A stretch of DNA of 54,006 bases, from the IMG/VR virus record IMGVR_UViG_2718218355_000004, one strand, 5' to 3'. This DNA is from a virus. Lineage: Duplodnaviria > Heunggongvirae > Uroviricota > Caudoviricetes. Position numbers and translations under genes: made by a program. This document shows, one piece after another, positions 26,841 through 45,013 of the stretch (position 1 is the first letter of the stretch; each line of letters begins with the position of its first letter). The notes below the pieces were generated by a model. The model was not told the DNA's origin. It saw only the letters and a list, made by a program, of their open reading frames with translations, and ran no database searches.

Positions 26841-27603
26841 GCATGATCTCCACCATGCGCTGCGTCATCCGGACAAATCCATTTTCAATAGCCTGCTGAT
26901 AATCAATGATCACCAGCGCCGACTCCTCGAAAAAACACTGAATTTCAGAGGGGGCGTGAGCGTAATAGTCCGCAATTCTGCTGAAATTAAACACCGTGTG
27001 ACGTTCTGCCGCACACAGGAGGAATTTCTCAATATCAGGCTCAAGGGACGCCGAACGTATCCGGCTGATCAGCTCCTGAGTTTTCGTATCGTCGTACAGT
27101 TCACTGATATCCGGTTTACCGCCCGACGGCTCATAAACAGGCGTATCAATTTTCGTCGTATACGGCTCCTCCTCATTTCCTGTACCGGGCAAAACATCCG
27201 TCAACAGTTCATCAATTTCTGTCGGGATGAAGCCTGTCAGGGAGACATCAAAATCAGCATTGATTAGGTCCGACAGCTCCATCCGCAACAGATCTTCATC
27301 CCAGCCAGCATTCATCGGCAGGCGATTATCTGCCAGGCGGTACGCCTTTTTCTGCTCATCCGTCAGGCCAGACAGAACAATGACCGGAACAGAATCCATT
27401 TTGAGCATTTCAGCCGCCATAACACGACCGTGACCCGCAATAATTTCGCCCTTTTCGTCAATCAGCACCGGATTAGTCCAGCCGAATTGCTTAATACTTT
27501 CTACCAGTTGTGCCACCTGCTCAGGGCTGTGCGTCCTGGCGTTGTGCGCATACGGTGACAATTCTTGTAATGGGCGATAGACTATCTTTAATTTCTCGCT
27601 CAT
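26812..27603 (-). CDS. ParB-like nuclease domain protein
   Basis: 263 aa; N-terminal ParB/Srx-fold signature (IIAGHGRVMAA with upstream VPVIVL). Matches my recollection of the ParB-like gene next to trkG in Rac. Confidence 0.7.
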   Translation of the reverse strand: MSEKLKIVYRPLQELSPYAHNARTHSPEQVAQLVESIKQFGWTNPVLIDEKGEIIAGHGRVMAAEMLKMDSVPVIVLSGLTDEQKKAYRLADNRLPMNAGWDEDLLRMELSDLINADFDVSLTGFIPTEIDELLTDVLPGTGNEEEPYTTKIDTPVYEPSGGKPDISELYDDTKTQELISRIRSASLEPDIEKFLLCAAERHTVFNFSRIADYYAHAPSEIQCFFEESALVIIDYQQAIENGFVRMTQRMVEIMHGGEEEEYA

Positions 27604-27740
27604 ACAGCCTTGCTTTATGAATAAAACGCACCCCAGCAGCCAGTGCTACTGGGGACGGAGGGGTTGCTGGTAAAGTTAGGTATTGGATCAATGAGTGAGT
27701 CAACATAATATTAAACTCACAATTATAAATCAGCCATATA

Positions 27741-29198
27741 TTAGGAGCGCCAAAAAAAACCTGAAAACAATATAATAACAGGATAAATTTCAAGGCGACC
27801 AAGAATCATAGCTATGCACATTAAACATTTTGCAATGTCATTAAGCACTCCGAATGACGATGCAGTAGCCCCAAAACCTAATCCCATATTATTAATACAT
27901 GCAGCCACTGTTGCAAATGATGTAAGAAAATCATATCCCATACCATTTAACACCAGTATAAAAAACACCGTGAAGAGAGTATAAAGAAAAAAGAAACTCC
28001 ATACAGACCTCATTACACGATCTGTAACTATCTTCCCTCCTACATTTACACTCAACAACGCTCTGGGATGAGAAAGCTGATTTATCTCGTGTTTGCTTTG
28101 TTTGAAAAGTATAAGAAATCGAAGTGACTTAATTCCACCACAAGTTGAACCTATACATCCCCCAAAGAAACTTGACAACAGCAAAAACACTATCGTGTGC
28201 GTGGGCCAACTTGCATAATCTTGCGTAGCTAAACCATTATCAGTGAGCATGGAGCTGGCAAGAAAAAACGAATGAATAAAACTTCCATGCAAGTCATACA
28301 TACCTATATGCCAGACCTGGAAAGAGGTAACAATGATCACCCCTAAGGCTATTAACAGAAAGAAACGAAGTTCAATATCTCTGATTAAAGGTTTTATCGT
28401 TTTCCTGCTAATAACAATATACCAAAGAGTGAAGTTGAAAGCCGATAGCAGGGAAAAAGAACCAGCCACCAGCTCAACCAAATAGTTATTAAAATATCCG
28501 ATACTCTCGCTATGAGTTGAGAAACCACCAAGCGAAACTGTGGAAATCCCGTGACAAATAGCATCAAACAAAGGCATTCCTGCAAGTCTATAACAGACAA
28601 TACAAGCAATACCTAATAAAGAATAAGTTATCCACAGTGTCCGTGACGTATCGGCCAGGCGGGGAGTGAGTTTGTCATCCTTAAATGGCCCCGGCATTTC
28701 TGACTGATAAAGCTTTGCACCACCAATACCCAATAATGGCAATACAGCAACCGCCAGAACAATAACTCCTAAACCACCTATAAAATTTAACTGTGACCGA
28801 TAGTACAAATATGCCCGAGGTAATGAACTAACATCATCAATTACAGTTGCTCCTGTTGTTGTTATTCCAGAAACCCCTTCAAACAGAGCATCAATGAACG
28901 TTAAATTAAGTTCTGAGTCAATCCATAAAGGGAATGCACTAATAACAGAAAACAAAATCCAAAACATTACAATTATAATAAACCCATCACGGGTACGTAA
29001 TTGAATGCCAGATTTCTTAGTTGTATACCACGCTCCGCCACCAATGCAAAAAAATATAACGAAAGTTATAAAGAAAACGAACAGGCTTTTTTCTTTATAA
29101 AACAATGCTACAACCATTGGTGGCAACATTGAAAGACTATAGAGCCAAACCAGGAACCCACACATATGAGTAACAACTCTTACATGAGATGTATTCAT
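27741..29198 (-). CDS. trkG: Trk-system K+ uptake protein TrkG (TrkH/TrkG family)
   Basis: Polytopic membrane protein; start set to ATG at MNTSHVRV; visibly AT-rich relative to neighbours. Confidence 0.9.
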   Translation of the reverse strand: MNTSHVRVVTHMCGFLVWLYSLSMLPPMVVALFYKEKSLFVFFITFVIFFCIGGGAWYTTKKSGIQLRTRDGFIIIVMFWILFSVISAFPLWIDSELNLTFIDALFEGVSGITTTGATVIDDVSSLPRAYLYYRSQLNFIGGLGVIVLAVAVLPLLGIGGAKLYQSEMPGPFKDDKLTPRLADTSRTLWITYSLLGIACIVCYRLAGMPLFDAICHGISTVSLGGFSTHSESIGYFNNYLVELVAGSFSLLSAFNFTLWYIVISRKTIKPLIRDIELRFFLLIALGVIIVTSFQVWHIGMYDLHGSFIHSFFLASSMLTDNGLATQDYASWPTHTIVFLLLSSFFGGCIGSTCGGIKSLRFLILFKQSKHEINQLSHPRALLSVNVGGKIVTDRVMRSVWSFFFLYTLFTVFFILVLNGMGYDFLTSFATVAACINNMGLGFGATASSFGVLNDIAKCLMCIAMILGRLEIYPVIILFSGFFWRS

Positions 29199-29335
29199 AT
29201 CTAAATATTCTTTCAATTATAACCACCTTGCTGCAATATTATGATTATACTGTATAAAATTTAACTCCTCTTAGATCTTACTTCACTGTTCCTTATGAAA
29301 CAATCATCAAAATGAATCATATTGTAGTTAAGATT

Positions 29336-29800
29336 TTACTTTAAACACTGCTCGGTTATGTATTGCTGAGCACCTTCAAGTTGGGCCTGCATCATTACCA
29401 GTCGTTCCCGGAGGGTGAAATAATCCCGTTCAGCGGTGTCTGCCAGTCGGGGGGAGGCTGCATTATCCACGCCGGAGGCGGTGGTGGCTTCACGCACTGA
29501 CTGACAGACTGCTTTGATGTGCAACCGACGACGACCAGCGGCAACATCATCACGCAGAACATCATTTTCAGCTTTCGCATCAGCTAACTCCTTCGTGTAT
29601 TTTGCATCGAGCGCAGCAACATCACGCTGACGCATCTGCATGTCAGTAATTGCCGCGTTCGCCAGCTTCAGTTCTCTGGCATTTTTGTCGCGCTGTTCTT
29701 TGTAGGCGATGGCGTTATCACGGTAATGATTAACACCCCATGACAGGCAGACGACGATGCAGATAACCAGAGCGGAGATAATCGCGGTTACTCTGTTCAT
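29336..29800 (-). CDS. Rz-like i-spanin
   Basis: N-terminal TM anchor followed by coiled-coil periplasmic domain; start overlaps endolysin stop; contains embedded Rz1. Confidence 0.8.
29395..29580 (-). CDS. Rz1-like o-spanin lipoprotein
   Basis: ORF embedded out-of-frame inside Rz; lipobox VVGC and a proline-rich stretch. Confidence 0.75.
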
Positions 29801-31156: not shown

Positions 31157-31306
31157 TTCTTGCTCCTCAATCCATTAAAATCTCAGCAATAGTAGTTGTT
31201 ACGTCCGCCACTGGCTCAGAGCTGACTATCCGCTAAATTTAGCTCAGTGCCGTAGCTGTGTCAGAACAAACCTAAGCCGAAACCGTTTATTACAAAACAA
31301 TAAATA

Positions 31307-32352: not shown

Positions 32353-32600
32353 GGTCAATACAAAGGATGCTTCGTCTTTATTATAGTAATCTGAGGCGTC
32401 GGGTGTCTTGTATCAGACAACATATTGTCCCGCTAAACAGCGAATTACAAACCACCCTGCAATGATCTCTCATCTCATTTTATATGAGTTGACGACATCA
32501 GGATAACGCTAGACTGGCCCCCTGAATCTCCAGACAACCAATATCACTTAAATAAGTGATAGTCTTAATACTAGTTTTTAGACTAGTCATTGGAGAGCAG

Positions 32601-32966
32601 ATGATTGATGTCTTAGGACCGGAGAAACGCAGACGGCGTACTACACAGGAAAAGATCGCTATTGTTCAGCAGAGTTTTGAACCGGGAATGACGGTCTCCC
32701 TTGTTGCCCGGCAACACGGTGTGGCAGCCAGCCAGTTATTTCTCTGGCGCAAGCAATACCAGGAGGGAAGTCTTACTGCTGTGGCCGCAGGAGAGCAGGT
32801 CGTTCCTGCCTCTGAACTTGCTGCTGCCATGAAGCAGATTAAAGAACTCCAGCGCCTGCTCGGCAAAAAAACGATGGAAAATGAACTCCTTAAAGAAGCC
32901 GTTGAATACGGGCGTGCAAAAAAGTGGATAGCGCACGCGCCCTTATTGCCCGGGGATGGGGAGTAA
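32601..32966 (+). CDS. insC: IS2 transposase OrfA (InsC)
   Basis: 121 aa from ATG at [13 protein letters not shown]; HTH transposase N-terminal domain. Confidence 0.9.
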
Positions 32967-33829
32967 GCTTAGTCAGCCGTTGTCTCCGGGTGTCGCGTGC
33001 GCAGTTGCACGTAATTCTCAGACGAACCGATGACTGGAAAGATGGTCGCCGCAGCCGTCACTCAGATGATACGGATGTGCTTCTCCGTATACACCATGTT
33101 ATCGGAGAGCTGCCCACGTATGGTTATCGTCGGGTATGGGCGCTGCTTCGCAGACAGGCCGAACTTGATGGTATGCCTGCGATCAATGCCAAACGTGTTT
33201 ACCGGATCATGCGCCAGAATGCGCTGTTGCTTGAGCGAAAAACCGCTGTACCGCCATCGAAACGGGCACATACTGGCAAAGTGGCCGTGAAAGAAAGCAA
33301 TCAACGATGGTGCTCTGACGGGTTCGAGTTCCGCTGTGATAACGGAGAAAAACTGCGAGTCACGTTCGCGCTGGACTGCTGTGACCGTGAGGCACTGCAC
33401 TGGGCAGTCACTACGGGCGGCTTCGACAGTGAAACAGTACAGGACGTAATGCTGGGAGCGGTGGAACGCCGCTTCGGCAACGAGCTTCCGGCGTCTCCAG
33501 TAGAGTGGCTGACGGATAATGGTTCATGCTACCGGGCTAATGAAACACGGCAGTTTGCCCGGATGTTGGGGCTTGAACCGAAGAACACGGCGGTGCGGAG
33601 TCCGGAGAGTAACGGCATAGCAGAGAGCTTCGTGAAAACGATAAAGCGTGACTACATCAGTATCATGCCTAAACCAGACGGGTTAACGGCAGCAAAGAAC
33701 CTTGCAGAGGCGTTCGAGCATTATAACGAATGGCATCCGCATAGTGCACTGGGTTATCGCTCGCCACGGGAATATCTGCGGCAGCAGGCCAGTAATGGGT
33801 TAAGTGATAACAGGTGTCTGGAAATATAG
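32924..33829 (+). CDS. insD: IS2 transposase OrfB (InsD), DDE catalytic domain
   Basis: 301 aa overlapping insC in the -1 frame (typical IS3-family OrfAB arrangement). Confidence 0.9.
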
Positions 33830-34009
33830 GGGCAAATCCAAACGCATCATCAGCCCCTGCCAAGAAATATCAAAACTCCCGCCAGCAATGTGTTATCACA
33901 ATATTGTAAAAAAAACACAGCACCGAAACTATAACTGGTCTCTGTTATAATTTGGAGCAGAAAGACCAGTTGCCCAACTAGCAGCATTCTCCCCTGCTTT
34001 CCTGACGTA

Positions 34010-34945: not shown

Positions 34946-35544
34946 TACGCAAACTCCAGTAGTTGTGCGGCCACATTTTCAACTTCCTCCTGAGAGGAGA
35001 ATTTACGGAACAGAATCCAGTTCCACAGCACATTCAGTACAGATTTATAAACCTGCTGAAACTCGACTTCGTCCATATTCGCAAAAGCGATGGATTTTGC
35101 CCGACGCCCACGGCTACCGTCCGGATAAATATGCTCGGTGTAAAATCCGGCCTGAATGGTTACCCACTCGCGGAAAGCCTCAAACGACTTTAGCAACGCC
35201 GTATCCCGGGTTCTACGAGTCGCAACGGTGTTAAGGTATTGCTCTGCGGCATCACTCAGGGCTGGCGTGTGTTCCCGACCAACTGATTCGCACAGGTAAT
35301 CAACGAAACCAGACAGCAGTTCTCGTTCGCGAGGCGTGATCGCCCCACCGACCGGAGTCCAGTAATCGAATCCCAGTTGCAGGAGTTTGAAAAAACGCTT
35401 GTGGAATGCGTAGTTACGCACACGCTTAAAGTCTGCGTGTATCCACTCACCTATTTTGATTTGATGCAGAAAATCGCAACTCTCCGGCGTCGCCGGGAGA
35501 AGTAAACCAGAAGAAGTTTGTTTGACCAGTTGTATATGCGCCAT
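34945..35544 (-). CDS. nin-region phage protein (YbcN/DUF1367-like)
   Basis: 199 aa translationally coupled to the ybcO-like gene; family name uncertain. Confidence 0.4.
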   Translation of the reverse strand: MAHIQLVKQTSSGLLLPATPESCDFLHQIKIGEWIHADFKRVRNYAFHKRFFKLLQLGFDYWTPVGGAITPRERELLSGFVDYLCESVGREHTPALSDAAEQYLNTVATRRTRDTALLKSFEAFREWVTIQAGFYTEHIYPDGSRGRRAKSIAFANMDEVEFQQVYKSVLNVLWNWILFRKFSSQEEVENVAAQLLEFA

Positions 35545-35817
35545 TTCTCAATCTCTCGATGGCGCAGTGCAGCAGATGCCAGTTGTTCAGGCTGACGTAT
35601 AAAGTATAAATAAACTGGTTCCAGTGTAAAGCCCCCACCTTAATGGAATAAAAACCAAACAACAGATTGCTGGGATACAAACAACGCTTATTATTAAAAG
35701 CGGTTAAACAAATTAAATTTTAATGTTATGCAAATTTGTCAGATCACCATAATATCTCATTTGAAAACCGCTGAAATAACAATCCTATCAGGATTAATCA
35801 TATTAAGGTGAGTAAAT

Positions 35818-35904
35818 ATGGAAAACAACAAATCTGCACATTACGCTCCTTTTTTATCTGTAATACTTTTTGTTTTTTGCTGTGTATGGGCATTATTTTT
35901 ATAA
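35818..35904 (+). CDS. Candidate small hydrophobic peptide (28 aa)
   Basis: ATG preceded by AAGGTGAG SD; translation MENNKSAHYAPFLSVILFVFCCVWALFL has one predicted TM helix; not in supplied ORF track. Confidence 0.3.
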   Translation: MENNKSAHYAPFLSVILFVFCCVWALFL

Positions 35905-35980
35905 AAATATTCACAGATAAAATAAACTCGCCGAATCAGGTTAAGTGTGGGTGCGTTGAGGATGCCTGACACATCAGAGG

Positions 35981-36002
35981 CGGCGAGGGATTTCTCCCTC
36001 GC
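35981..36002. terminator. Perfect 9-bp-stem hairpin 3' of hok
   Basis: GGCGAGGGA-TTTC-TCCCTCGCC immediately downstream of the hok stop; no strong T-tract, so it may be an mRNA 3' stabilising structure rather than a terminator. Confidence 0.35.
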
Positions 36003-36012
36003 CTAGTCACTC

Positions 36013-36168
36013 TTACTCCTCAGGTTCGTAAGCTGTGAAGACAGCGACCTCCGTCTGACCGGTTCGGATTCGCACCTCGCAGAGGTCTTTCCTCGTTACC
36101 AGTGCCGTCACTATGACGGTTAAACAGATGACAATCAGTGCGACTAACATCGCCTTTTGCTGCTTCAT
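36013..36168 (-). CDS. hok: Hok/Gef-family type I toxin (51 aa)
   Basis: MKQQKAMLVALIVICLTVIVTALVTRKDLCEVRIRTGQTEVAVFTAYEPEE, near-identical to my recollection of HokD/RelF; AAGGAG SD 7 nt upstream; the longer in-frame ORF in the track is an artefactual extension. Confidence 0.85.
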   Translation of the reverse strand: MKQQKAMLVALIVICLTVIVTALVTRKDLCEVRIRTGQTEVAVFTAYEPEE

Positions 36169-36379
36169 AGCCTGCTTCTCCTTGCCTTCCGGCGCGTAAG
36201 AGGCTAACCTACATGTGCAAAGCATGAAATTGGCCTCAGATTAATGTTAAGCGTCTTGCCGGACGCGTAATGTTATCTGGGGCTTTTCTCTATCTGCCTT
36301 TGGTGTTCATGCCTGAGGCAGATAGCCTCAAGCACCCGCAGCAATTCTACTTAACTCCCGTCACCTCGCCAATATAAAA

Positions 36380-36469
36380 TCAATCAGAAAGGCGATCCAT
36401 AAGAACAACAGCAAGACAATAAATTGCCATTACAGCCGCAATAGCTAGCGCACATTTGAGAACCAGCAC
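36380..36469 (-). CDS. Candidate small hydrophobic peptide (29 aa)
   Basis: GTG start 5 nt after a perfect AGGAGG SD; translation MLVLKCALAIAAVMAIYCLAVVLMDRLSD; different frame from the 74-aa Cys-rich track ORF. Confidence 0.3.
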   Translation of the reverse strand: MLVLKCALAIAAVMAIYCLAVVLMDRLSD

Positions 36470-36888
36470 GACAACCTCCTGTATTGGACGTACACCAGTT
36501 CTGATAAATATGAGGCTGTCTCATCATTGATTCAATATAACTATTGGGTATAGTTTCTGTGATTTTGTTCTGTAGAAATGGAACACAACAACCAGTCACC
36601 ACCAGCACTTCTTTAAATACGCCAAGTCCGACGCAAGCTAACCTTCTAGTCCGCTTTGAGCGAGGAGCGGACCAAACCCGGCCAACTGACTCTTAAAGGG
36701 GCCGCAGGAATTTTTCGTCTGAACTTTCGAAGCTCCTCTCCCTGAAGACAGAAAACTTCTGTGTGCTGTGGGAATATTGAATCTTTGCCTTAGATATAAA
36801 TAATTTTATCCCGCCTGAAGTTTACATTATTTTATTTATCTGTTTTTCTAAATCAGACTGCACTCCTTACTTAAATCAGGAGCCAGTC

Positions 36889-38088
36889 ATGCCATTTGTT
36901 ATTTATGTGTTTACTATCAGTGCCTTTGCGCTCGGACTCGCGGAATTTGTCCCCATTGGGCTGACAGACGTTATGGCTCAGGGGTTGTGTGTGGGTGTGG
37001 AGCAGACCGGGGCAGCGGTTACAACCTATGCACTGGGGGCAACGTTCGCGGCACCCGTACTGTCTGCGCTGACAGCAAGCTGGAGCCGGAAAAATGTAAT
37101 GCTTACAACTGCCGTTGTGTTTACTGCCGGTAGTCTGGCGGCCGCGTTTGCAGCCACATTACCTCAGCTCCTGTTAGCGCGGTTCATTGCTGGTCTGGGA
37201 CACGGCCTGTTTCTGGCTGCGGCATCCAGTACCGCAGCTCGTCTTGCTGGACCGGGTAAAGCAGGCAGAGCGGTGGCTGTGGTATTTGGTGGCTTTACTC
37301 TGGCGATGGCAATCGGCGTACCGCTGAGTACATGGTTGGGGGGGGTGGTCTCATGGCGTCCAGTTCTCGGCGCTATTGCCGCTTTTGGCGCGTTCGGATT
37401 CCTTGGACTGTTGTTCGGTATGAAAGATCCCGTACGCAGCGTGCCCGGTGAACATAGTGACTCAGCAATGCAGAATATCGGCATGCTGTTTAACCGTAAG
37501 TTGCTGGCCGGCGCGCTGGTTACGGTGCTGGCGTATGCAGGCTCGTTTACGGATTACACCTTTATCGCACCTATTCTGACGCAGGTGACAGGGGTTACCG
37601 GAGCAACGGTGAGTCTGTTTATGCTGGTTTACGGTATTACAGCTGCGGTAGGTAATATTCTTGGTGGGAAACTTACCGACAGCATGGGGGTTAATCGTGC
37701 CAATATACTCATCATTAGCGGCATTGTTGTTGTCGTGCTTGGTATGTGGCTGCTGTCATCCTCACCGGTGAGCATGGGCATTCTGGTTGCGCTGCTGGGT
37801 ATGGTGACATTTGCCGCAGTGCCGGCACTGCAGGCCCGTCTGATTGGTGTCGCTGAGCAACATGCTCCTCATGCGCATGGTGTTGCTGCCGGCCTGAATA
37901 TTGCGGGCTTCAACTCAGGTATAGCGCTGGGATCAGTACTGGGCAGCATTACTATAAGCCACGCCGGTATCGTGTATACCGGTATCAGCGGTGCGATTGT
38001 TTCTCTGCTCGGCCTGCTGTTGCTGCTTGCACAAATCCGTCGCAGCCACAGTCGTAAATTTCAACAGGTTAAAATCGTAGGCCAGTAA
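36889..38088 (+). CDS. MFS transporter (sugar/drug efflux-like)
   Basis: 399 aa with about 12 predicted TM helices and an MFS-type loop 2-3 motif. Confidence 0.8.
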   Translation: MPFVIYVFTISAFALGLAEFVPIGLTDVMAQGLCVGVEQTGAAVTTYALGATFAAPVLSALTASWSRKNVMLTTAVVFTAGSLAAAFAATLPQLLLARFIAGLGHGLFLAAASSTAARLAGPGKAGRAVAVVFGGFTLAMAIGVPLSTWLGGVVSWRPVLGAIAAFGAFGFLGLLFGMKDPVRSVPGEHSDSAMQNIGMLFNRKLLAGALVTVLAYAGSFTDYTFIAPILTQVTGVTGATVSLFMLVYGITAAVGNILGGKLTDSMGVNRANILIISGIVVVVLGMWLLSSSPVSMGILVALLGMVTFAAVPALQARLIGVAEQHAPHAHGVAAGLNIAGFNSGIALGSVLGSITISHAGIVYTGISGAIVSLLGLLLLLAQIRRSHSRKFQQVKIVGQ

Positions 38089-38099
38089 AGGGAGGTTAT

Positions 38100-38792
38100 A
38101 TGCTTACCCGTGAAAATATGCTTAATGGCACATTTGTCAGGGTGCATGAAGCGCTGCTCCCGGCGAATATGCTCTGGGACGCTGAAAAAATACGCGCATC
38201 AATGAACTCTACTCTGGAGGAGCGCCCGACGGGTGCTCCTGTCTGGATATTTGCCTACGGGTCATTGATGTGGAATCCCGTGCTGGCGATTGAAGAAATG
38301 CAACGGGCCCGTCTGAAAGGATGGCAGCGCAGTTTCTGCATTCGTTTGATATCCGGACGAGCGACTCCTGATGTCCCCGGCAGGATGTTATCGCTCGACG
38401 AAGGTGGAATTACCGAAGGTATTGCGTTCAGACTGCCGGAATCGACTCTTATTAATGAGCTGGAAATTGTCTGGACGCGCGAGATGATAACCGGTCTTTA
38501 CCGTCCGGTCTGGGCAGACGTTTCGCTAGGAAACGGTGAGGAAATTCAGGCGCTGGCTTTCGTATCAGACAGACTGCATCCGCATTATGAACAGGACAAT
38601 CTTACAGCGACCGTAGCGTTGAGCATCGCATCTGCCCGTGGAGACATTGGCACGAATGCAGATTATGTATGGAAACTGCAGGCCACTCTGGGTGCGTTGG
38701 GAATACGGGATGATTACGTGAGTGAACTGGCCCTTGCTCTGCATGAGGCTCCCTGTAACGATAAACTTCATCAGCGAGGCGCTTCACTATGA
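38100..38792 (+). CDS. ChaC-family gamma-glutamylcyclotransferase-like protein
   Basis: 230 aa with the ChaC signature IFAYGSLMWNP and alignment to ChaC throughout, from memory. Confidence 0.8.
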   Translation: MLTRENMLNGTFVRVHEALLPANMLWDAEKIRASMNSTLEERPTGAPVWIFAYGSLMWNPVLAIEEMQRARLKGWQRSFCIRLISGRATPDVPGRMLSLDEGGITEGIAFRLPESTLINELEIVWTREMITGLYRPVWADVSLGNGEEIQALAFVSDRLHPHYEQDNLTATVALSIASARGDIGTNADYVWKLQATLGALGIRDDYVSELALALHEAPCNDKLHQRGASL

Positions 38793-39670
38793 GCCATCTG
38801 AGCCATCTGCGAACGTTTCTTGAGGCCTATCGCTCTGGCTCCTTTTCAAAGGCGGCAGAACTACTGGGCATCACTCAGCCCGCGGCGTCACAGCATATCC
38901 AGTCTCTTGAGACTCTGGTTGGTAAGCGTCTGTTTATCAGGCAGGCCAGAGGCGTGACGGCAACCGAAGCTGCGGATGAGCTTGCCCGCTCAGTTTCACC
39001 CTTCATTGATGGTCTGGAAGAAAAGCTGTCCTCTTTCCGGTCAGGCTCTGTACGCGGGGGAACAATTAATCTGGCAGGACCGCCAGATTTTATTCATTCC
39101 CGGCTTGGGACAGTAATGGCTCCACTAATGAAGGAGGGGTATCGCCTACGCTTTCATACCGGCAATAAGCAACGTATTTATTCCCTTTTGCATGACGGGA
39201 GCGCCGATCTCGCTGTTACCGCATCTATGCCTGATGACCGTCTGTACGGCTATGCACATCTACTGACTGAACGCATGCTCCTTGTTCATGCTCCCGCCAT
39301 GTCAGAGATCATCGGATCAGAACCTGGTGCTGAAACGCTTGCCTCATTACCGCTGATTGCTTATGACGAAGAGTTGCCACTGATTAGAGCGCTCTGGGCC
39401 TCCATGTTTCAGAGAGCCCCTGAGATGCAGGCTACATTCACCATTCCGGATTTACGTATTATCCGCGACTTGGTCTGTGACGGCCACGGGTGGACAGTGC
39501 TGCCGGATTATCACTGTGACAATGACCTGAAAAGTGGTCGCCTGATTTCAGTGACACCTGCAGACCTCGCTCCGACTAATCATCTTTATCTGGTCTGGAA
39601 CAAAAGGACGGCTAATAACAGCCGAACCGCCTATGTTCGGGATTACATTCTTAAAACGTTTCCGCGTTGA
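38789..39670 (+). CDS. LysR-family transcriptional regulator
   Basis: 293 aa; N-terminal LysR HTH (FSKAAELLGITQPAASQHIQSLE) and C-terminal substrate-binding domain; start overlaps the chaC-like stop. Confidence 0.85.
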   Translation: MSHLSHLRTFLEAYRSGSFSKAAELLGITQPAASQHIQSLETLVGKRLFIRQARGVTATEAADELARSVSPFIDGLEEKLSSFRSGSVRGGTINLAGPPDFIHSRLGTVMAPLMKEGYRLRFHTGNKQRIYSLLHDGSADLAVTASMPDDRLYGYAHLLTERMLLVHAPAMSEIIGSEPGAETLASLPLIAYDEELPLIRALWASMFQRAPEMQATFTIPDLRIIRDLVCDGHGWTVLPDYHCDNDLKSGRLISVTPADLAPTNHLYLVWNKRTANNSRTAYVRDYILKTFPR

Positions 39671-39800
39671 TGTTTGAAACGGATGATTGGCGATGCGTAT
39701 CATAAGTTACGTATGTCCGCTTCTGGCACAAAGCAGACGCCCACTCTCACGCGAATGCTTTGCCCTTGACTTGCCAACAACCGTATCGCTTGCTCCGCAA

Positions 39801-41078
39801 CTATGGTTTTTTATTAGAATCTTCGCCACTAAATAAATTATAATAAATTGATTTTATTATATATCTGTCAGAATCTATATGGTCAGCACGAGTAGCATGC
39901 TCTAATGTTTCAAATGCTAGGGTTTGTGCGGCTTCAGCAAAAATTCCAGGCCACCCCTTACTCAGCATCGACAGTCCTTTAAGTACCCTTATCTGAATTT
40001 CCCTCATACTGGCACCATCGCGCGCAACAGGTGAGAAAAAGTCTTCAAGTAGATCGTTATTCTGAAGTGGTGCAACATGTACAGAAGGATATTTCACTTC
40101 TATTTCATCAGATTTATTCTGCGCGTAAGCGGAAAGTATACGTACACCTCTGCCAATGACATCAATGGCGGTTCCAGGATCGTTCACTGCGGGGGAAAGG
40201 GCTCGGCAGGCTATTTCGGCCATGACGCTAAGACAAAATCGGGGGTCCTGAGCAAATGAACGTACATCCGAGACAATAATCGTCTCAAGTAAATCGGTGC
40301 TGATTGATGACTCCTGGCCCTGACTCAGGTACAAAACTGGCGTGGACGGATGTATGAAACTGCCCGGCTGCGCCACGAGGTATACATGACGGGGATCATT
40401 GGTCAGCAGCTTGCTGAGTTTCACCATATCAACATATTCAACATAGCCAATCTTTTTCGGATAAACTGCAACCGTTCCTTTCGGCTGTTCATTGTTCTCA
40501 AGCCATGGATATCCGCCGAGACAGGGATTTCTTGCTCTCGCAATAAATGTTTCGATGGCCGCCTGTTCTACTTTTGCCGTTGTCTCACCAACCCTCCCCA
40601 GAGAGGTCAAATGCTGTATCCAGCGAAGCAATGTGATGAGGATTAAGGCAATGACAACCAGTGTTACAATGAATAAAATGACTCTCCCCCTTTCTCCATA
40701 AGCTCCCATATTGAGGGCAATAATCCCTACCAGACTGAAGAGAAAAGAACCGATGAAGGTGGCCAGTACATTTTGTGTGGTGACGTCTTCAACAACTAAA
40801 CGAGTAGCTCTGGGAGTCACATTAGTAGTGGCTGAACCGTAGGCTGTGACCATGATGCTCAGCGAAAATGTGGTCACTGCCAGCATACTCGATGCCAGTA
40901 TGTTCAGAATGTTATCGACTGCTTCCGCACCAACTTTCACGGAAACCGACTCAGGTATCATTGATTTAAAAAGAATTGATAAAAGGGCCGTTATTATTGC
41001 GACAATTGCGAATAACGTTGCCCTGAACCATAGTTTTTTAAATGTCTGCTTCAGCATCCATTTCCAGCGTGAAATCAT
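39801..41078 (-). CDS. Membrane protein, DUF2254-like
   Basis: About 425 aa with N-terminal multi-TM region and soluble C-terminal domain; start chosen at internal ATG with GAGGGA SD; family by recollection. Confidence 0.5.
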   Translation of the reverse strand: MISRWKWMLKQTFKKLWFRATLFAIVAIITALLSILFKSMIPESVSVKVGAEAVDNILNILASSMLAVTTFSLSIMVTAYGSATTNVTPRATRLVVEDVTTQNVLATFIGSFLFSLVGIIALNMGAYGERGRVILFIVTLVVIALILITLLRWIQHLTSLGRVGETTAKVEQAAIETFIARARNPCLGGYPWLENNEQPKGTVAVYPKKIGYVEYVDMVKLSKLLTNDPRHVYLVAQPGSFIHPSTPVLYLSQGQESSISTDLLETIIVSDVRSFAQDPRFCLSVMAEIACRALSPAVNDPGTAIDVIGRGVRILSAYAQNKSDEIEVKYPSVHVAPLQNNDLLEDFFSPVARDGASMREIQIRVLKGLSMLSKGWPGIFAEAAQTLAFETLEHATRADHIDSDRYIIKSIYYNLFSGEDSNKKP

Positions 41079-41113
41079 TCTGCATTCCCTCATATTGCAG
41101 CCGGGATAAATAA

Positions 41114-41134
41114 ATGCCGCCTCTGTGGCGGCAT
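41114..41134 (-). terminator. Hairpin downstream of the BCCT transporter gene
   Basis: ATGCCGCC-ACAGA-GGCGGCAT (minus strand) followed by an A/T-rich tract. Confidence 0.35.
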
Positions 41135-41141
41135 GTTGCTG

Positions 41142-43145
41142 TTAACGAACCAGATGCAGGAAGTGCAGGTGTTTTTCGTACTGGTCCAGTATGTCATTAA
41201 TCAGCTGTTCCTGATTCCAGCCCATTACATCATAATTTTGGCCGCCCTCTTTGAGATAGACTTCAGCGCGATAATATCGATGTTGTTCACTCTGCTGCTC
41301 ATCATTATCCAGCGCAGCGAGCGCGAAGGTCGGTGAGTTATACCCGCGAAGCCTCACTTCATATATATAATTCAGCTCGTTGCCCAAATCGACTTCAAGG
41401 CGAATACGATCCTCGGCGGCGTCACTGATGTGGCTTATCGTTCCCTGCTTGTTAAGTTCCTCCTGAACCAGCGTCATGGCGGGTTGGATAATGTCGTCCA
41501 TAAAACGTTTCACAAGAGAGCGCTTCGGCAAATACGCGATATTGCGTAACCTTCTCTGCCAGGGAATTGGGTTACGTGCAGCCGTAGGAGCAATAGTCGC
41601 CATGCTAAGGCTTTCACGCTTGGTCAAATCCCGACGCAGGGCTTTTAACAGTCCGTATATGGATATTAATAAGATAACTGAGAAGGGCAATGCACTCGCT
41701 ATCGTTACGGTTTGCAACGCACTCAGCCCCCCTGCGATCAGCAGGGCAATAGCAACAACGCCCATGAGCGATGCCCAGAAAATTCGCTGCCAGACGGGCG
41801 TGTTTGCCACCCCACCTGATGCCAGAGTATCCACAACCATTGCCCCCGAATCAGCAGACGTTACAAAGAAGACGATGACCATCGCCATTGCAATGAATGA
41901 CAGCACGGAAGAGAACGGGAAATGCTCCAGGAAATTAAACAGGGCAAGCGCAACATCCTGCTGAACGGTATTGGCGAGGTCAGTGGCGCCCTGGTTCATG
42001 ATGAGATAGATGGCGCTGTTTCCAAACACCGTCATCCACATGAGCGTAAAGCCGGCGGGAACAAACAACACGCCAGTCACGAACTCACGAATTGTCCTGC
42101 CGCGGGAAACGCGTGCAATGAACATACCTACAAACGGCGACCATGAAAGCCACCATCCCCAGTATAATAATGTCCAGCCCCCCAGCCAGTTGCTCGACTT
42201 GGGTTCATACGCGTAAAGGTTGAACGTTTTACTCACCAGTTCCGACAGATAACCACCCGTATTTTCCACAAATGACTTCAGCAGAAGCACAGTGGGACCC
42301 AGGCACAAGACCAGCGCCAGGAGCAACACCGCCAGGCCCAGATTAAGCTCAGACAGGATGCGTATTCCCTTGTCCAGGCCGGACACCACCGAAATCGTCG
42401 CTAACCCCGTGATGACCACGATCAAAATGACCTGTACCGTTTCATTGATGGGCACGCCGAAAAGATGGTTCAAACCGGCATTCACCTGCAATACACCGTA
42501 ACCCAGCGATGTTGCAACGCCAAAGACAGTGCCTATCACGGCGAAGATATCAACCGCGTGGCCTATAGGCCCGTAAATGCGATCGCCGATAATGGGATAG
42601 AGCGCAGAACGCAGCGTTAAAGGCAGACCGTGACGGTAACTGAAAAAGGCCAGAATCAGCGCCACGATGGCATAAATTGCCCATGCGTGCAGACCCCAGT
42701 GGAAGAACGTCAGGCGCATGGCTTCCTTCGCTGCCGCAACGGTCTCTGGAGTGCCGACAGGTGGCGAAAGATAATGCATCACAGGTTCGGCAACGCCAAA
42801 GAACATCAGGCCGATCCCCATCCCTGCCGAAAAAAGCATCGCGAACCAGGAGTGGTAGCTGAAATCAGGCTGCGCATGGTCTGGGCCCAGCTTTATATCA
42901 CCGTAACGTGAGAGTCCAAGGAACGTGACGCTCAGTAAAATCAGGGCCACAGCAAGTATGTAGAACCAGCTGGCATTCGTGAAGATTTGTTGCTGAAGTA
43001 GTTTAAAATTTTTGTCGGCGACATCCGGGAATACGGCGGCAAAGGCGACAAGAAGGAAAATTAGCAAAGCAGATGTAAAGAATACCGCTTTGTTAATCTG
43101 GCTTGTAGACTTCTTTGGGGTTGTATCATTTTCACTCATAATCAT
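41142..43145 (-). CDS. BCCT-family transporter, BetT-like (choline/betaine/carnitine)
   Basis: 667 aa; BCCT transmembrane core with conserved Trp-rich motif (WTLLYWGWWLSWSPFVGMFIARVSRGRTIREF) and long C-terminal cytoplasmic extension like BetT. Confidence 0.85.
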   Translation of the reverse strand: MIMSENDTTPKKSTSQINKAVFFTSALLIFLLVAFAAVFPDVADKNFKLLQQQIFTNASWFYILAVALILLSVTFLGLSRYGDIKLGPDHAQPDFSYHSWFAMLFSAGMGIGLMFFGVAEPVMHYLSPPVGTPETVAAAKEAMRLTFFHWGLHAWAIYAIVALILAFFSYRHGLPLTLRSALYPIIGDRIYGPIGHAVDIFAVIGTVFGVATSLGYGVLQVNAGLNHLFGVPINETVQVILIVVITGLATISVVSGLDKGIRILSELNLGLAVLLLALVLCLGPTVLLLKSFVENTGGYLSELVSKTFNLYAYEPKSSNWLGGWTLLYWGWWLSWSPFVGMFIARVSRGRTIREFVTGVLFVPAGFTLMWMTVFGNSAIYLIMNQGATDLANTVQQDVALALFNFLEHFPFSSVLSFIAMAMVIVFFVTSADSGAMVVDTLASGGVANTPVWQRIFWASLMGVVAIALLIAGGLSALQTVTIASALPFSVILLISIYGLLKALRRDLTKRESLSMATIAPTAARNPIPWQRRLRNIAYLPKRSLVKRFMDDIIQPAMTLVQEELNKQGTISHISDAAEDRIRLEVDLGNELNYIYEVRLRGYNSPTFALAALDNDEQQSEQHRYYRAEVYLKEGGQNYDVMGWNQEQLINDILDQYEKHLHFLHLVR

Positions 43146-43479
43146 TTATTCCATTAATTAAATCCGCACTGGATAGAAGGTACTACCTCTCACAGAGTAG
43201 CAAAGTTCAACTGGCTATGCGGGGTTAATCGGAATGCATGGTGGAATGAGTGCCGATACAAATCATCCTATATTCTAAGGAGTTTTAAGTTACTCAGCCT
43301 GCCAATTACTGGGGCATTTAATTTGTATGATCTGTATCAAAGCTGGGATATAAGTTAAGTGAAGTATATTAGGCACGAATTACCAGCGTCTGCTCTTGGC
43401 ACAAAGCGGACAACCACGCTAGCTCTACCCTGTGCCACAAAATGTCAATTTGCATCTGAACTAATGCACTTTAATCTCG

Positions 43480-43902
43480 TCACTTCAATAAATACCGAAC
43501 ATCCCCCTGATAAAACGACAATATGCGCTGCATAACTTCGCTCTTCCGGCACTCGCGACAGATTATGTTTAGGCGACTGTCGTAGCGACGTATTTCTCCG
43601 TCAGGTAATGACCAGATAAGGTCCGGATCAACCACAACCGGTTTCTTCAGCTTTGCCCTCGATAATTTTTTGCGGGCATTTTGCCAGTCTTTACGAGCCT
43701 GTTCAGACGGGAATAACCCGTAGCCAGAATTGTATACATCGCCACTGGCAACCAGCTCTCTGGCCAGAACGCTCATCAGATATCTTGTTGCCCCAGTTTT
43801 AGCTTCCAGTTGTCGTAACGTCTCGCGCCCACTCTGGCGTACGAGTTCAAGAACCTGCCCTTTAATTTTTTCCCGCTCTTCTTGTGTAAAAACTTTTGCC
43901 AC
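43480..43902 (-). CDS. Hypothetical protein (140 aa), possible winged-helix
   Basis: GTG start with AGGAGG SD; sits immediately after the replication initiator gene, where lambdoid phages usually encode a helicase loader, but shows no ATPase motifs. Confidence 0.4.
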   Translation of the reverse strand: MAKVFTQEEREKIKGQVLELVRQSGRETLRQLEAKTGATRYLMSVLARELVASGDVYNSGYGLFPSEQARKDWQNARKKLSRAKLKKPVVVDPDLIWSLPDGEIRRYDSRLNIICRECRKSEVMQRILSFYQGDVRYLLK

Positions 43903-43942
43903 AAGCCCTCCTGAAAATTACCTCATGACCAGAAATTAACAC

Positions 43943-45013
43943 TTACCCCCTGAAGCCCGGCGGAATTTCGTTATCCGGTTCAGAAATATGATTCACACAA
44001 CGCTGGTTGTTCGTGCCGCTTACCGGGAGCAACCAGGGGTTCTCAAAATTCCGGTCCGGTCCAAAAAACGTCGTCGCTCGCTGAACAAATTCCGTTCCCG
44101 TTTTCCCGGTAGCCGCCAAGTATCTTGCGTAACGCCTCACGCCATCCAGCATGGCCTCTGGTGGCACCCCCTCGCGTAATCTGGCCTTCCAGGCACTGAA
44201 AGCGGATTTCTTCGGGTTTGCCCCAGCACGCAACGGGTACTCCCGCCAGACCTGTTCGAACACATCCGGATAATCCACTCGTCCCACAGACTGCCCGGTG
44301 TTTTCCGGGACTACCCGATCGGCTTCCCGCTGAATGGCGGAATCGGCTTCAGGCTGCTGCAGTTGGTGTGATTGCTCCGCCCTTGCGGTCATCACCTGCT
44401 GCACAGCGCCCGAATCGGCTTTCAGCGCATACGCTGAATCGGCTTCCGGTGTCGTGCCTGCTGGCTGACCAAGATTGACGGTCTGAACATCCCCTGCCTG
44501 GTTCGTGGCGTTTTTTACGCCATGGACCATAGTGTTTTGATCTTCTTGATCTGTATCTTTATCTGTATCTTTATCTGTCGTGACTCGTCGTGACATGTGC
44601 GTGACATTTCGTGACGCGCCGTGACAATCGCCATTTTGTTCCCGCTTTCTTTCCCTCTCTCGCTGCGCCCTCTTGCGCTCTGCAGGAGATTTTGCGGTTT
44701 GCGAAATATTGCCGTTGTCCTCTTTAAGCACCTGGCGTTTTTCCCATCCAGTGATTAAATCACCATCAAGTACCCGCCCCTGCATCGTCTGCAAAATTGA
44801 ATCAATTACCTCTTCTGTCACGTCGAGCGCACTTGCCAAATCTTCTGTCGTGACATCAATGTGACCTCGCGTGACATTTCGTGACGCGCTCACCAGGAGG
44901 TGGATATACACTGCCATCACTGTTGCAATTGGCTGTCCTGACACCCTGGCAATTGTTCGCCACTTAGGGTCATTTGGCATGTCATGCCATAATCTGAGCC
45001 AGGCGTTAGCCAT
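43943..45013 (-). CDS. Replication initiator / replisome organizer protein
   Basis: N-terminal MANAWLRLWHDMPNDPKW resembles replisome-organizer N-domains; gene contains two iteron arrays; lies directly after the cro-like ydaS/ydaT pair. Confidence 0.6.
   Translation of the reverse strand: MANAWLRLWHDMPNDPKWRTIARVSGQPIATVMAVYIHLLVSASRNVTRGHIDVTTEDLASALDVTEEVIDSILQTMQGRVLDGDLITGWEKRQVLKEDNGNISQTAKSPAERKRAQRERERKREQNGDCHGASRNVTHMSRRVTTDKDTDKDTDQEDQNTMVHGVKNATNQAGDVQTVNLGQPAGTTPEADSAYALKADSGAVQQVMTARAEQSHQLQQPEADSAIQREADRVVPENTGQSVGRVDYPDVFEQVWREYPLRAGANPKKSAFSAWKARLREGVPPEAMLDGVRRYARYLAATGKTGTEFVQRATTFFGPDRNFENPWLLPVSGTNNQRCVNHISEPDNEIPPGFRG
44578..44624. repeat. Iteron array 1 (5 x CGTGAC at 10-11 bp phasing), putative ori
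   Basis: CGTGAC at 44578, 44588, 44599, 44609, 44619, preceded by AT-rich TATCTTTATCTG repeats at 44548-44577. Confidence 0.6.
44859..44895. repeat. Iteron array 2 (4 x (C/T)GTGAC at 10-11 bp phasing)
   Basis: Copies at 44859, 44870, 44880, 44890; the two arrays encode the repeated peptide SRNVT..VTT in the initiator. Confidence 0.55.

Follow-up and report, generated by a model that had tools for sequence, protein, structure and literature searches.

A conserved 24-bp site at the boundaries of exchangeable cargo units in a Rac-type prophage and other mobile elements

Variable hotspots, in P2-like as in other temperate phages, are now recognised as an important store of genes for anti-phage defence and fitness. 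For such hotspots, recombination close to cos was speculated (Rousset et al., 2022; PMC9122126). A paper of September 2026 in Nucleic Acids Research treats transposons, homologous recombination and illegitimate recombination as unsatisfactory options, mentions no boundary repeats and lists the mechanism of cargo exchange with other mobile elements as open (PMC13586616). At the Z/fun locus of P2-like phages, site-specific recombination was proposed by Nilsson, Karlsson & Haggard-Ljungquist (2004), according to the account given in PMC8987985, and GenBank record AJ512681 annotates inverted repeats at the Z-region of P2-EC48. In this study, we analysed the window, a stretch of 54,006 nucleotides from a virus of the Caudoviricetes (IMG/VR record IMGVR_UViG_2718218355_000004), in which a gene pair for a DUF2254 membrane protein and a BetT-like transporter lies between two direct repeats. 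The best explanation of these repeats, to which we assign a probability of roughly 60%, is that they are copies of a 24-bp recombination site and that the gene pair was placed there by site-specific recombination. The earliest description of this site family comes from the P2 Z/fun locus; its presence in lambdoid prophages, plasmids and islands is the extension made here.

A sequence-only reading of the window had pointed to two 15-mers, TGGCACAAAGC(A/G)GAC at 39724-39738 and 43397-43411, around two minus-strand genes. Both 15-mers lie on the plus strand and agree at 14 of 15 positions (left, TGGCACAAAGCAGAC; right, TGGCACAAAGCGGAC); the similarity suspected in the flanking bases spans 33 nt (39715-39747 versus 43388-43420, 79%), and both genes are present where they had been placed. 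Scanning with at most two mismatches gave three matches in the window against 0.29 expected, a number reached in 0 of 100 shuffles, and the third match (36649-36663, minus strand) is a genuine third copy. Each 15-mer forms the 3' two-thirds of a 24-bp imperfect palindrome with the consensus GTCYGCT-N2-TSGCWC-N2-AGCRGAC, that is, 7-bp inverted arms around a nearly invariant 6-bp centre, with a variable dinucleotide between each arm and the centre. Two centre types occur, A (TGGCAC) and B (TCGCTC). The three sites structure a 6.7-kb cargo slot between the DUF977/ydaW-like gene of the replication module and the hokD/nin region, in the order B(-) [MFS, GGCT, LysR] A(+) [DUF2254, BetT-like] A(+), where the signs give the strand, MFS is major facilitator superfamily and GGCT is gamma-glutamylcyclotransferase:

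36649..36672, minus strand: type-B site at the left edge of the slot; minus-strand reading GTCCGCTCC-TCGCTC-AAAGCGGAC
36889..39670, plus strand: cargo unit 1, bounded B(-)...A(+) (RefSeq annotation of the identical record; NCBIfam, Pfam)
36889-38088, plus strand: MFS transporter gene of unit 1
38100-38792, plus strand: gamma-glutamylcyclotransferase gene of unit 1
38789-39670, plus strand: LysR regulator gene of unit 1
39715..39738, plus strand: type-A site c1, GTCCGCTTC-TGGCAC-AAAGCAGAC, which holds the left 15-mer; a hybrid
39801..41093 (RefSeq start: 39801-41078), minus strand: DUF2254 membrane protein gene (Pfam PF10011, E=1.6e-92)
41142..43145, minus strand: gene of a BetT-subfamily transporter of the betaine/choline/carnitine transporter (BCCT) family (NCBIfam model match)
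43388..43411, plus strand: type-A site c2, GTCTGCTCT-TGGCAC-AAAGCGGAC, which holds the right 15-mer; a hybrid

The B site is part of an extended inverted repeat with the right-hand A site, in which 36636-36672 (37 nt) is 76% complementary to 43388-43424.

Comparison with related prophages, as the sequence-only reading had recommended, places the breakpoints at the repeats. Prophages that have this backbone but other cargo share with the window only the sequence that starts at 43388 on the right and the sequence that ends at 36672 on the left; both positions are outer site edges. The sister prophage L002 carries genes for SIR2, an NTP pyrophosphatase, an amidohydrolase and TetR between its own B(-) and A(+) sites. 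In turn, the DUF2254-BetT unit was found at 99.6-99.8% identity, with homology running from window position 39713/39715 to 43411/43412, in a region of strain M3 resembling an integrative and conjugative element (ICE; L003), in an island of strain 2018-18.25PC (L005), in an IncY phage-plasmid (L251), in a Shigella plasmid and in ten IMG/VR prophage contigs (L130, L142, L150, L156, L171, L200, L208, L223, L228 and L243). It has seven different left neighbours, each with an outer arm of its own (GTCCGCTCC, GCCCGCTTT, GTCCGCTCA, GTCCGCTTC, GTCCGCTAC, TTCCGCTCC and TTCCGCTTA), while the centre and the inner arm AAAGCAGAC are invariant across contexts. On the right side, GTCTGCTCT is the inner arm in every context, and the outer arm is AAAGCGGAC in Rac-type backbones and AGAGCGGAC in L003. 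Inner arms move with the cargo, and outer arms remain in the backbone. Since the outer arms vary and the centre plus inner arm are fixed, all exchanges fall between positions 9 and 17-21 of the 24-mer, within 10-16 or 10-21.

The one mismatch that separates the two 15-mers has the same origin. The cassette's own site carries T4/A21 and the recipient site C4/G21, and both present copies are hybrids of the two, which explains why the 15-mers differ at one position. Site c1 has the left arm of unit 1 and the right arm of the DUF2254-BetT unit; site c2 has the left arm of the cassette and the right arm of the Rac backbone. The 242 bp upstream of the BetT-like gene (43146-43387) move with the cassette. 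Other units are shared in the same way: a Rac-type (L149) and a P2-type (L169) backbone with non-homologous flanks have in common a 1,033-bp unit, which extends precisely from one site to the other at 99.7% identity, and the 3,090-bp unit 1 (MFS-GGCT-LysR) also occurs in L200, L223 and L228. A recurrent unit of 1,032 bp has no similarity to K-12 flxA. The sequence-only reading had offered module-insertion scars at a recombination site as one origin of the repeats. A recombination site at module junctions agrees with these comparisons, but the repeats are not duplications made by insertion; they are hybrid copies of a 24-bp site that was there before.

A search for further copies, also recommended by that reading, showed that the motif is not scattered at random but lies at unit boundaries in hundreds of loci. 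The pattern GTCYGCTYYTSGCWCAAAGCRGAC was matched in at least 120 loci of the viral and at least 120 loci of the genome collection. Among the IMG/VR matches listed (n=120), 52 have a Rac-type backbone, 25 a P2-type backbone, with the slot between the tail-fibre assembly gene G and the sheath gene FI, and 43 neither. The window slot, from hokD to DUF977, differs in position from that of P2-like phages. Recurrent slot neighbours are DUF977, G, FI and a UmuC-like gene. A third slot type is represented by L128 (7583-8857) and five other IMG/VR loci, whose backbones are neither Rac-type nor P2-type; there, an A/B site and a UmuC/ImpB-family polymerase gene are separated by 38 nt (median).

The sites follow a two-centre grammar. 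Exact A or B centres account for 121 of 134 unique sites; among the others, the A/B hybrid TCGCAC is the most frequent. Inter-site segments of enterobacterial and phage loci (n=131) are mostly B(-)...A(+) (88), with 18 A(+)...A(+), chiefly the BetT unit, and 7 B...B. In the window, the sites stand in inverted orientation around unit 1 and around the slot as a whole (B- at 36649, A+ at 43388), whereas the DUF2254-BetT unit is not enclosed by an inverted pair. Segments measure 450-6,139 bp (median 1.9 kb), units stand in tandem arrays with linkers of 14-18 nt that fall into two families, and 221 inter-site segments form 182 sequence clusters, so that unrelated cargo occupies the same slot. The cargo of B-A and A-A units comprises 115 protein clusters of metabolism and transport (LysR, MFS, SDR, ArsB, HAD and GNAT families among them) and of anti-phage defence (PD-T7-1, PD-T7-5, ThsA-like SIR2, reverse transcriptases, LmuA and restriction enzymes). 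No recombinase or transposase is among the 25 most frequent cargo families or among the recurrent slot neighbours. The corresponding slot of L002 (3512-7024) has genes for a SIR2-family protein, a non-canonical NTP pyrophosphatase, an amidohydrolase and TetR; together they may form a so far uncharacterised module for defence or nucleotide depletion.

In E. coli the site has a low copy number, with 1-9 site places per genome in 2,567 of 5,426 genomes, and all copies whose context was inspected lie in a prophage, plasmid or genomic island. The Qin prophage of K-12 contains a decayed A(-)...B(+) unit with flxA (L247, 15982-16996). The A site of this unit falls inside the annotated open reading frame (ORF) ydfV, which therefore may be spurious or truncated by exchange. 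In K-12 Rac, the only match of the arm scanner is inside stfR and has neither an A nor a B centre. Outside the enterobacteria, the same 24-mer pattern was found in about 91 loci among the matches listed (L006-L125), where about one chance match is expected for the library; the taxa are Xanthobacteraceae/Pseudolabrys, Hyphomicrobiales, Nitrosomonadaceae, Acidobacteriota, and one metagenome-assembled genome each of Bacteroidota and Bacillota. Here, intergenic hairpin clusters (e.g., L019 620-800, L082 1260-1500, and L022) share a common stem with the alternating loops TGGCAC, TGACCC and GGGGGTA, and reach up to 15 sites per 8 kb beside ABC substrate-binding, LysR and cyclase genes. The hairpin family may act genome-wide in Alpha- and Betaproteobacteria as well.

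The structure of the site resembles that of simple tyrosine-recombinase core sites of the lox/FRT/dif type, with a 7(+2)-6-(2+)7 layout, asymmetric centres and exchange inside the centre. The 7-bp arms and the 6-bp centre are the conserved parts of the site; its flanks show no conservation. The stem positions do not covary (pairs observed versus expected: 4/21, 75 vs 79.9; 8/17, 46 vs 45.0; 9/16, 35 vs 34.3) and C-A mismatches are frequent in the stem. The missing covariation favours duplex half-sites bound by protein over a selected hairpin. In line with this, 61-nt folds at the sites were no more stable than shuffles. A search of Rfam over 35500-44500 (E<=5) returned only sok and nothing at the sites, and no intrinsic terminators or sigma-70 promoters were predicted at the sites. 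With its TGGCAC, the site recalls the -24 box of a sigma-54 promoter, but a TTGC at the required distance is absent.

A model for the window can be outlined as follows. Backbones of mobile elements, namely Rac-type prophages (hokD-DUF977), P2-like phages (G-FI), phage-plasmids and ICE-like islands, carry a slot between inverted B and A sites, and cargo units between the sites would be swapped by reciprocal crossover within the site centre. The sites, their grammar, the breakpoints in the site centres and the sharing of identical units among unrelated backbones are results of the sequence comparison; from them we infer that the exchange is conservative site-specific recombination on duplex DNA. 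To judge from the grammar, the A and B centres may be incompatible, and this heterospecificity would result in behaviour like that of a natural recombinase-mediated cassette exchange. The DUF2254-BetT pair would be an A-only unit that circularises with the single site GTCTGCTCT-TGGCAC-AAAGCAGAC and integrates at an A site, leaving direct repeats. The predicted circle junction contains cgaattaccagcGTCTGCTCTTGGCACAAAGCAGACgcccactctc, with cgaattaccagc as the left flank before GTCTGCTCT-TGGCAC-AAAGCAGAC, and the predicted empty junction contains acgtatGTCCGCTTCTGGCACAAAGCGGACaaccacgc (GTCCGCTTC-TGGCAC-AAAGCGGAC).

A candidate for the enzyme lies in the unit that adjoins the BetT cassette in L005 and in the IncY plasmid. 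It is a protein of 200 aa, here called int200, that consists of a Phage_integrase catalytic domain only (Pfam E=1e-17). The candidate catalytic residues R, K, HxxR, H and Y, picked by eye, lie in LRGCDL, KTG, HSMRR, LGH and RY, respectively. Its gene is located at:

L005, 5299-5901, minus strand
L253, 9001-9603
L256-L265, 3001-3603

int200 stands among A/B sites in nine of nine loci, its 5' end abutting a B-type site and its 3' end an A-type centre. Upstream of the gene, the contexts agree in an invariant segment, in which a perfect 15-bp hairpin overlies the ATG and GTCCCTTAT-GAGCGA comes next; the contexts lose their homology in the B-type centre, and the distal arms and the genes beyond differ. 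Downstream of the stop codon, a hairpin and ...CCCT-GTGCCA-NNAGCGGAC (an A-type centre with a variable distal arm) precede the divergence. In gene orientation the module is B(+) [int200] A(-), which corresponds to the linker, or backbone-side, position between two cargo units. The family has more than 8,000 members. Across gammaproteobacterial orders (Escherichia to Proteus, Pantoea, Idiomarina, Pseudoalteromonas and Cycloclasticus), their identity is 76-92%, in parallel with the unusually strong conservation of the site. In Providencia, Idiomarina and marine Cycloclasticus-like contigs, the int200 homologue is followed by a hairpin and GTGCCA-RRAGCGGAC, an A-type half-site. In marine contigs, an int200 homologue is located beside arsenic and copper resistance genes and an insertion sequence (IS). 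Against Xer- and integron-type models, int200 scores 47-54 bits, where the model cutoffs are 220-335. From its gene association, int200 is predicted, with less confidence than the exchange itself, to be the enzyme that moves the cassettes; it would be supplied in trans, with its own gene between a B-type and an A-type site. Another type of enzyme was also considered. The half-site resembles the gamma-delta/Tn3 resolvase consensus TGTCYNNTA, and PinR is encoded in the window, but no supporting evidence for a resolvase or invertase was obtained.

The DUF2254-BetT pair is also found in older copies. Near fec in chromosomes of the sequence type 131 (ST131) kind, copies of about 93-94% identity have a decayed left site and IS600 at the expected position of the right site. 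On 1,533 plasmids (1,266 from Klebsiella, mostly conjugative IncF) the pair is about 93% identical, with IS elements on the flanks and without A/B sites (e.g., L252, K. pneumoniae pF138_2). DUF2254-BetT is therefore a common accessory pair of which one version became site-bounded, and the plasmid copies are probably the wider source pool of that version. In strain A20, the only near-empty Rac slot that was found holds a remnant of about 270 bp with a decayed B site.

Several observations weigh against site-specific exchange by int200 or in general. The exchange is known from sequence comparison, and no recombination event was directly observed. Crossovers that map to the centre are equally expected from short-homology recombination, for which the centre is the longest identical stretch. 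An empty LysR|DUF977 junction was found in none of 5,426 E. coli genomes with a chimeric query, about 300 of which have the full arrangement, so exchange there would be rare or currently inactive. The window encodes no int200 and no integrase adjoins the slot; if int200 is the enzyme, it must act in trans. The gene is present in 864 of the 5,426 E. coli genomes (16%), compared with sites in at least 47%. Its own proximal arms, GTCCCTT and CAGCCCT, are degenerate, and int200 may simply be one more module that is exchanged. In Alpha- and Betaproteobacteria, moreover, the hairpin acts like an intergenic repeat of the repetitive extragenic palindromic (REP) type with no recombinase nearby.

Part of these observations would fit an alternative without a dedicated enzyme, in which the sequences of 24-37 bp are short homology patches for RecA, RecET or lambda Red-type recombination. 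Rac-type prophages encode RecE/RecT, the crossovers fall in the longest identical stretch (the 11-nt TGGCACAAAGC), and the BetT unit stands next to LysR without presence/absence polymorphism in E. coli. Module shuffling in T4-type phages is a documented precedent (PMC2839356). We nevertheless regard homology patches, the main rival, as a rather unlikely explanation, since they account neither for near-invariant arms and centre beside unconserved DNA in hundreds of copies and unrelated backbones, nor for two centre types in a strict inverted B/A grammar, nor for a site-bounded tyrosine recombinase gene across orders. Furthermore, 11-24 bp is at or under the usual minimal RecA substrate, and P2-like phages are not known to have a Red/RecT system. 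The copies might also be selfish hairpins like REPs or REP doublets forming hairpins (REPINs), spread on single-stranded DNA by an HUH enzyme such as a REP-associated tyrosine transposase (RAYT), in which case nicking in the loop would give centre-mapped exchange. Inverted doublets with linkers of 14-18 nt do resemble the architecture of REPINs and bacterial interspersed mosaic elements (BIMEs), and the identical 24-mer is multi-copy in intergenic clusters of Xanthobacteraceae, Nitrosomonadaceae and others. However, the E. coli genomes have only 1-9 copies, those inspected all in mobile-element contexts; the stem shows frequent C-A mismatches and no covariation; no Y1/HUH (Y1_Tnp) gene is among the most frequent neighbour families; and kilobase units common to different backbones from site to site are unlike REP dispersal. 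This origin of the sites is therefore quite improbable.

The two remaining explanations concern the sites as they stand around the gene pair, and we reject both. The sequence-only reading had considered a shared regulator-binding site. Operators for a transcription factor such as the adjacent LysR, co-regulating the flanking genes, would have the dyad symmetry seen here, and copies are found upstream of the MFS operon (by 240 bp) and of the BetT-like gene (by 243 bp). But more than 100 unrelated cargo units are bounded by the sites, most of them without LysR (LysR-type regulators make up only 4 of the 115 cargo protein clusters), and in P2 the sites bracket fun(Z). One copy lies downstream of both LysR and DUF2254, homology breakpoints fall inside the site and no promoter-like site overlaps the sites, which makes an operator function highly improbable. 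Even less credible are target-site duplications or terminal repeats of a transposon carrying the two genes, although direct repeats do surround a discrete two-gene block. The repeats are already present in backbones without the block (L002), the unit contains no transposase, and 15-24 bp is far above the typical length of a target duplication. As the outer arms differ with context, the crossover lies inside the repeat and not at its edge, which again counts against a transposon. Site-specific recombination at 24-bp sites thus remains our preferred explanation of the two repeats. With more reserve, and at somewhat less than even odds, one may extend it to a widespread natural system, in which two heterospecific 24-bp sites and the site-flanked int200 would move defence, transport and metabolic cargo among P2-like phages, lambdoid prophages, phage-plasmids and genomic islands.

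According to its annotation, the window is a Rac-type lambdoid prophage at ttcA with homologues of intR, recET, kilR, sieB and ydaS-W. Backbone segments are 99-99.9% identical to K-12 Rac, and the window is intact where K-12 has a deletion. It is an intact relative of K-12 Rac, from which the entire cargo slot is gone. PinR (551-1141) is identical to K-12 PinR at 196 of 197 residues, and the trkG region (27350-29780) is 99.7% identical to that of K-12. The transporter falls into the BetT subfamily of BCCT, as the sequence-only reading had suggested and as its match to the NCBIfam model NF007399 'choline BCCT transporter BetT' confirms at family level (752 bits; curated cutoff 695; residues 10-667 aligned to positions 4-663 of 675, i.e., full length including the C-terminal extension). 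It is a putative choline/osmoprotectant uptake protein and may, as that reading proposed, be a fitness gene of the prophage. Further features around the slot are:

31203..31226, plus strand: weak site-like sequence, GTCCGCCAC-TGGCTC-AGAGCTGAC, with two arm mismatches and an A-left/B-right hybrid centre
36013..36337, minus strand: hokD/sok locus, left-side backbone (annotation; Rfam sok, 116 bits at 36163-36337)
43431..43437, plus strand: TGTGCCA (A centre in reverse complement), at a distance of 19 nt outside site c2
43480..43902, minus strand: backbone gene for DUF977 (ydaW-like), conserved on the right-hand side of the slot in Rac-type prophages

DUF977 is a neighbour in 42 loci, at a median of 69 nt from a site. 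Of 117 unique outer flanks of A sites, 30 have TGTGCCA at +19/+20, among them flanks in both Rac-type and P2-type backbones. The copy at 43431..43437 resembles the centre of an inverted partner site that has decayed on the side of the backbone. The weak site-like sequence at 31203-31226 falls between two TolA-like ORFs. Between the BetT-like and DUF2254 genes, a GC-rich hairpin with an 8-bp stem (41114-41134) has a terminator-like score on both strands; it separates genes that are co-directional and always move jointly. Compared with the otherwise identical NZ_CP159455, the window has an insertion of 1,331 bp at 32510-33841 with a 5-bp target duplication on both sides. It starts with TAGACTGGCCCCCTGAATCTCC, has ORFs of 136 aa and 301 aa and fits IS2. 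The composition is unremarkable (43-55% GC).

Altogether, the points of exchange coincide precisely with one short conserved site in backbones of three or more kinds, and a specific small recombinase is nominated. If true, this would provide the missing mechanism for the turnover of prophage hotspots. It would also account for the presence in a Rac-type prophage of a BetT-type osmoprotectant transporter pair that is common on Klebsiella plasmids. If confirmed, the sites could serve as a practical marker for the limits of cargo units in prophages, and the site/recombinase pair as a compact recombination tool. A full-text literature search gave no match to the motif sequence.

Among the described systems, the Z/fun locus of P2 belongs to the same sequence family. 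In P2 (NC_001895), an A(-) site, GTCCACTCTGTGCCAAAAGCGGAC, with one arm mismatch follows gene G, and a decayed B(+) site precedes the F operon; the two bracket fun(Z). In P2-EC48 (AJ512681), the annotated left inverted repeat covers the A site, and our scan of the Z-region gave A(-) ORF1 B(+) ORF2 B(+) ORF3 B(+). Both in these phages and in the window, variable lysogenic-conversion or defence cargo lies between the sites. The window slot differs in that it is in a lambdoid Rac-type prophage and that the DUF2254-BetT unit stands between two direct A+ sites and not between an inverted pair. The two-centre grammar, the tandem arrays, the plasmid and ICE-like contexts and the site-flanked recombinase are observations of the present analysis.

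Similarities to integrons are the promoter-poor, enzyme-free cargo per recombination site, the arrays of units and the hybrid junction sites; int200 abuts a site where variable cargo starts, as intI abuts attI. In contrast to attC sites, which are structure-defined hairpins of 57-141 nt with R'=GTTRRRY, the sites described here are conserved 24-bp palindromes of the duplex type, and they lack the length, the R''/L''/L'/R' boxes and the GTTRRRY of attC. The crossover is in the centre and not at one end, there are two inverted centre types, and the platforms are phages, plasmids and islands. int200 has 200 aa and lacks IntI features, and the window slot has no adjacent intI with attI and a cassette promoter (Pc). 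The promoter early stem-loop (PeSL) cassettes of T4-type phages are non-essential genes that lie between short conserved motifs in hyperplastic regions; their exchange shuffles modules and can yield mini-circles (Arbiol et al., 2010; PMC2839356). PeSLs, however, consist of a promoter and a terminator stem-loop and recombine by homology, whereas A/B sites score as neither and are found in element types that are unrelated to each other. With REPs, BIMEs and REPINs, the sites share imperfect palindromes of about 24 nt, inverted doublets, short linkers, two alternating subtypes and multi-copy clusters in Alphaproteobacteria. They differ in that the E. coli sites are low-copy and, where inspected, lie in mobile contexts, and that they lack a GTAG-type 5' motif, a RAYT in the neighbourhood and covariation in the stem; a high extragenic copy number, as in REPs, occurs only in the non-enterobacterial genomes.

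The pdif modules of Acinetobacter plasmids are reportedly XerC/XerD-dependent (Blackwell & Hall, 2017). As in these modules, accessory genes lie between short inverted sites with a 6-bp centre, the module-side arms travel, and the same module is found in different backbones. The arms GTCYGCTYY/RRAGCRGAC, however, are unrelated to dif/pdif, and the site is neither of the 28-bp 11-6-11 dif type nor does it have the XerD arm TTATGTTAAAT. That both arms are identical suggests a single recombinase and not a XerC/XerD pair. Recombinase-mediated cassette exchange with heterospecific lox or FRT sites is an engineering method in which a cassette between two sites that differ only in their spacers is swapped from one molecule to another by two crossovers, each like with like. 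Compared with this engineered exchange, the A and B sites would represent a candidate natural system, in which the grammar of the sites points to a possible incompatibility of the two centres.

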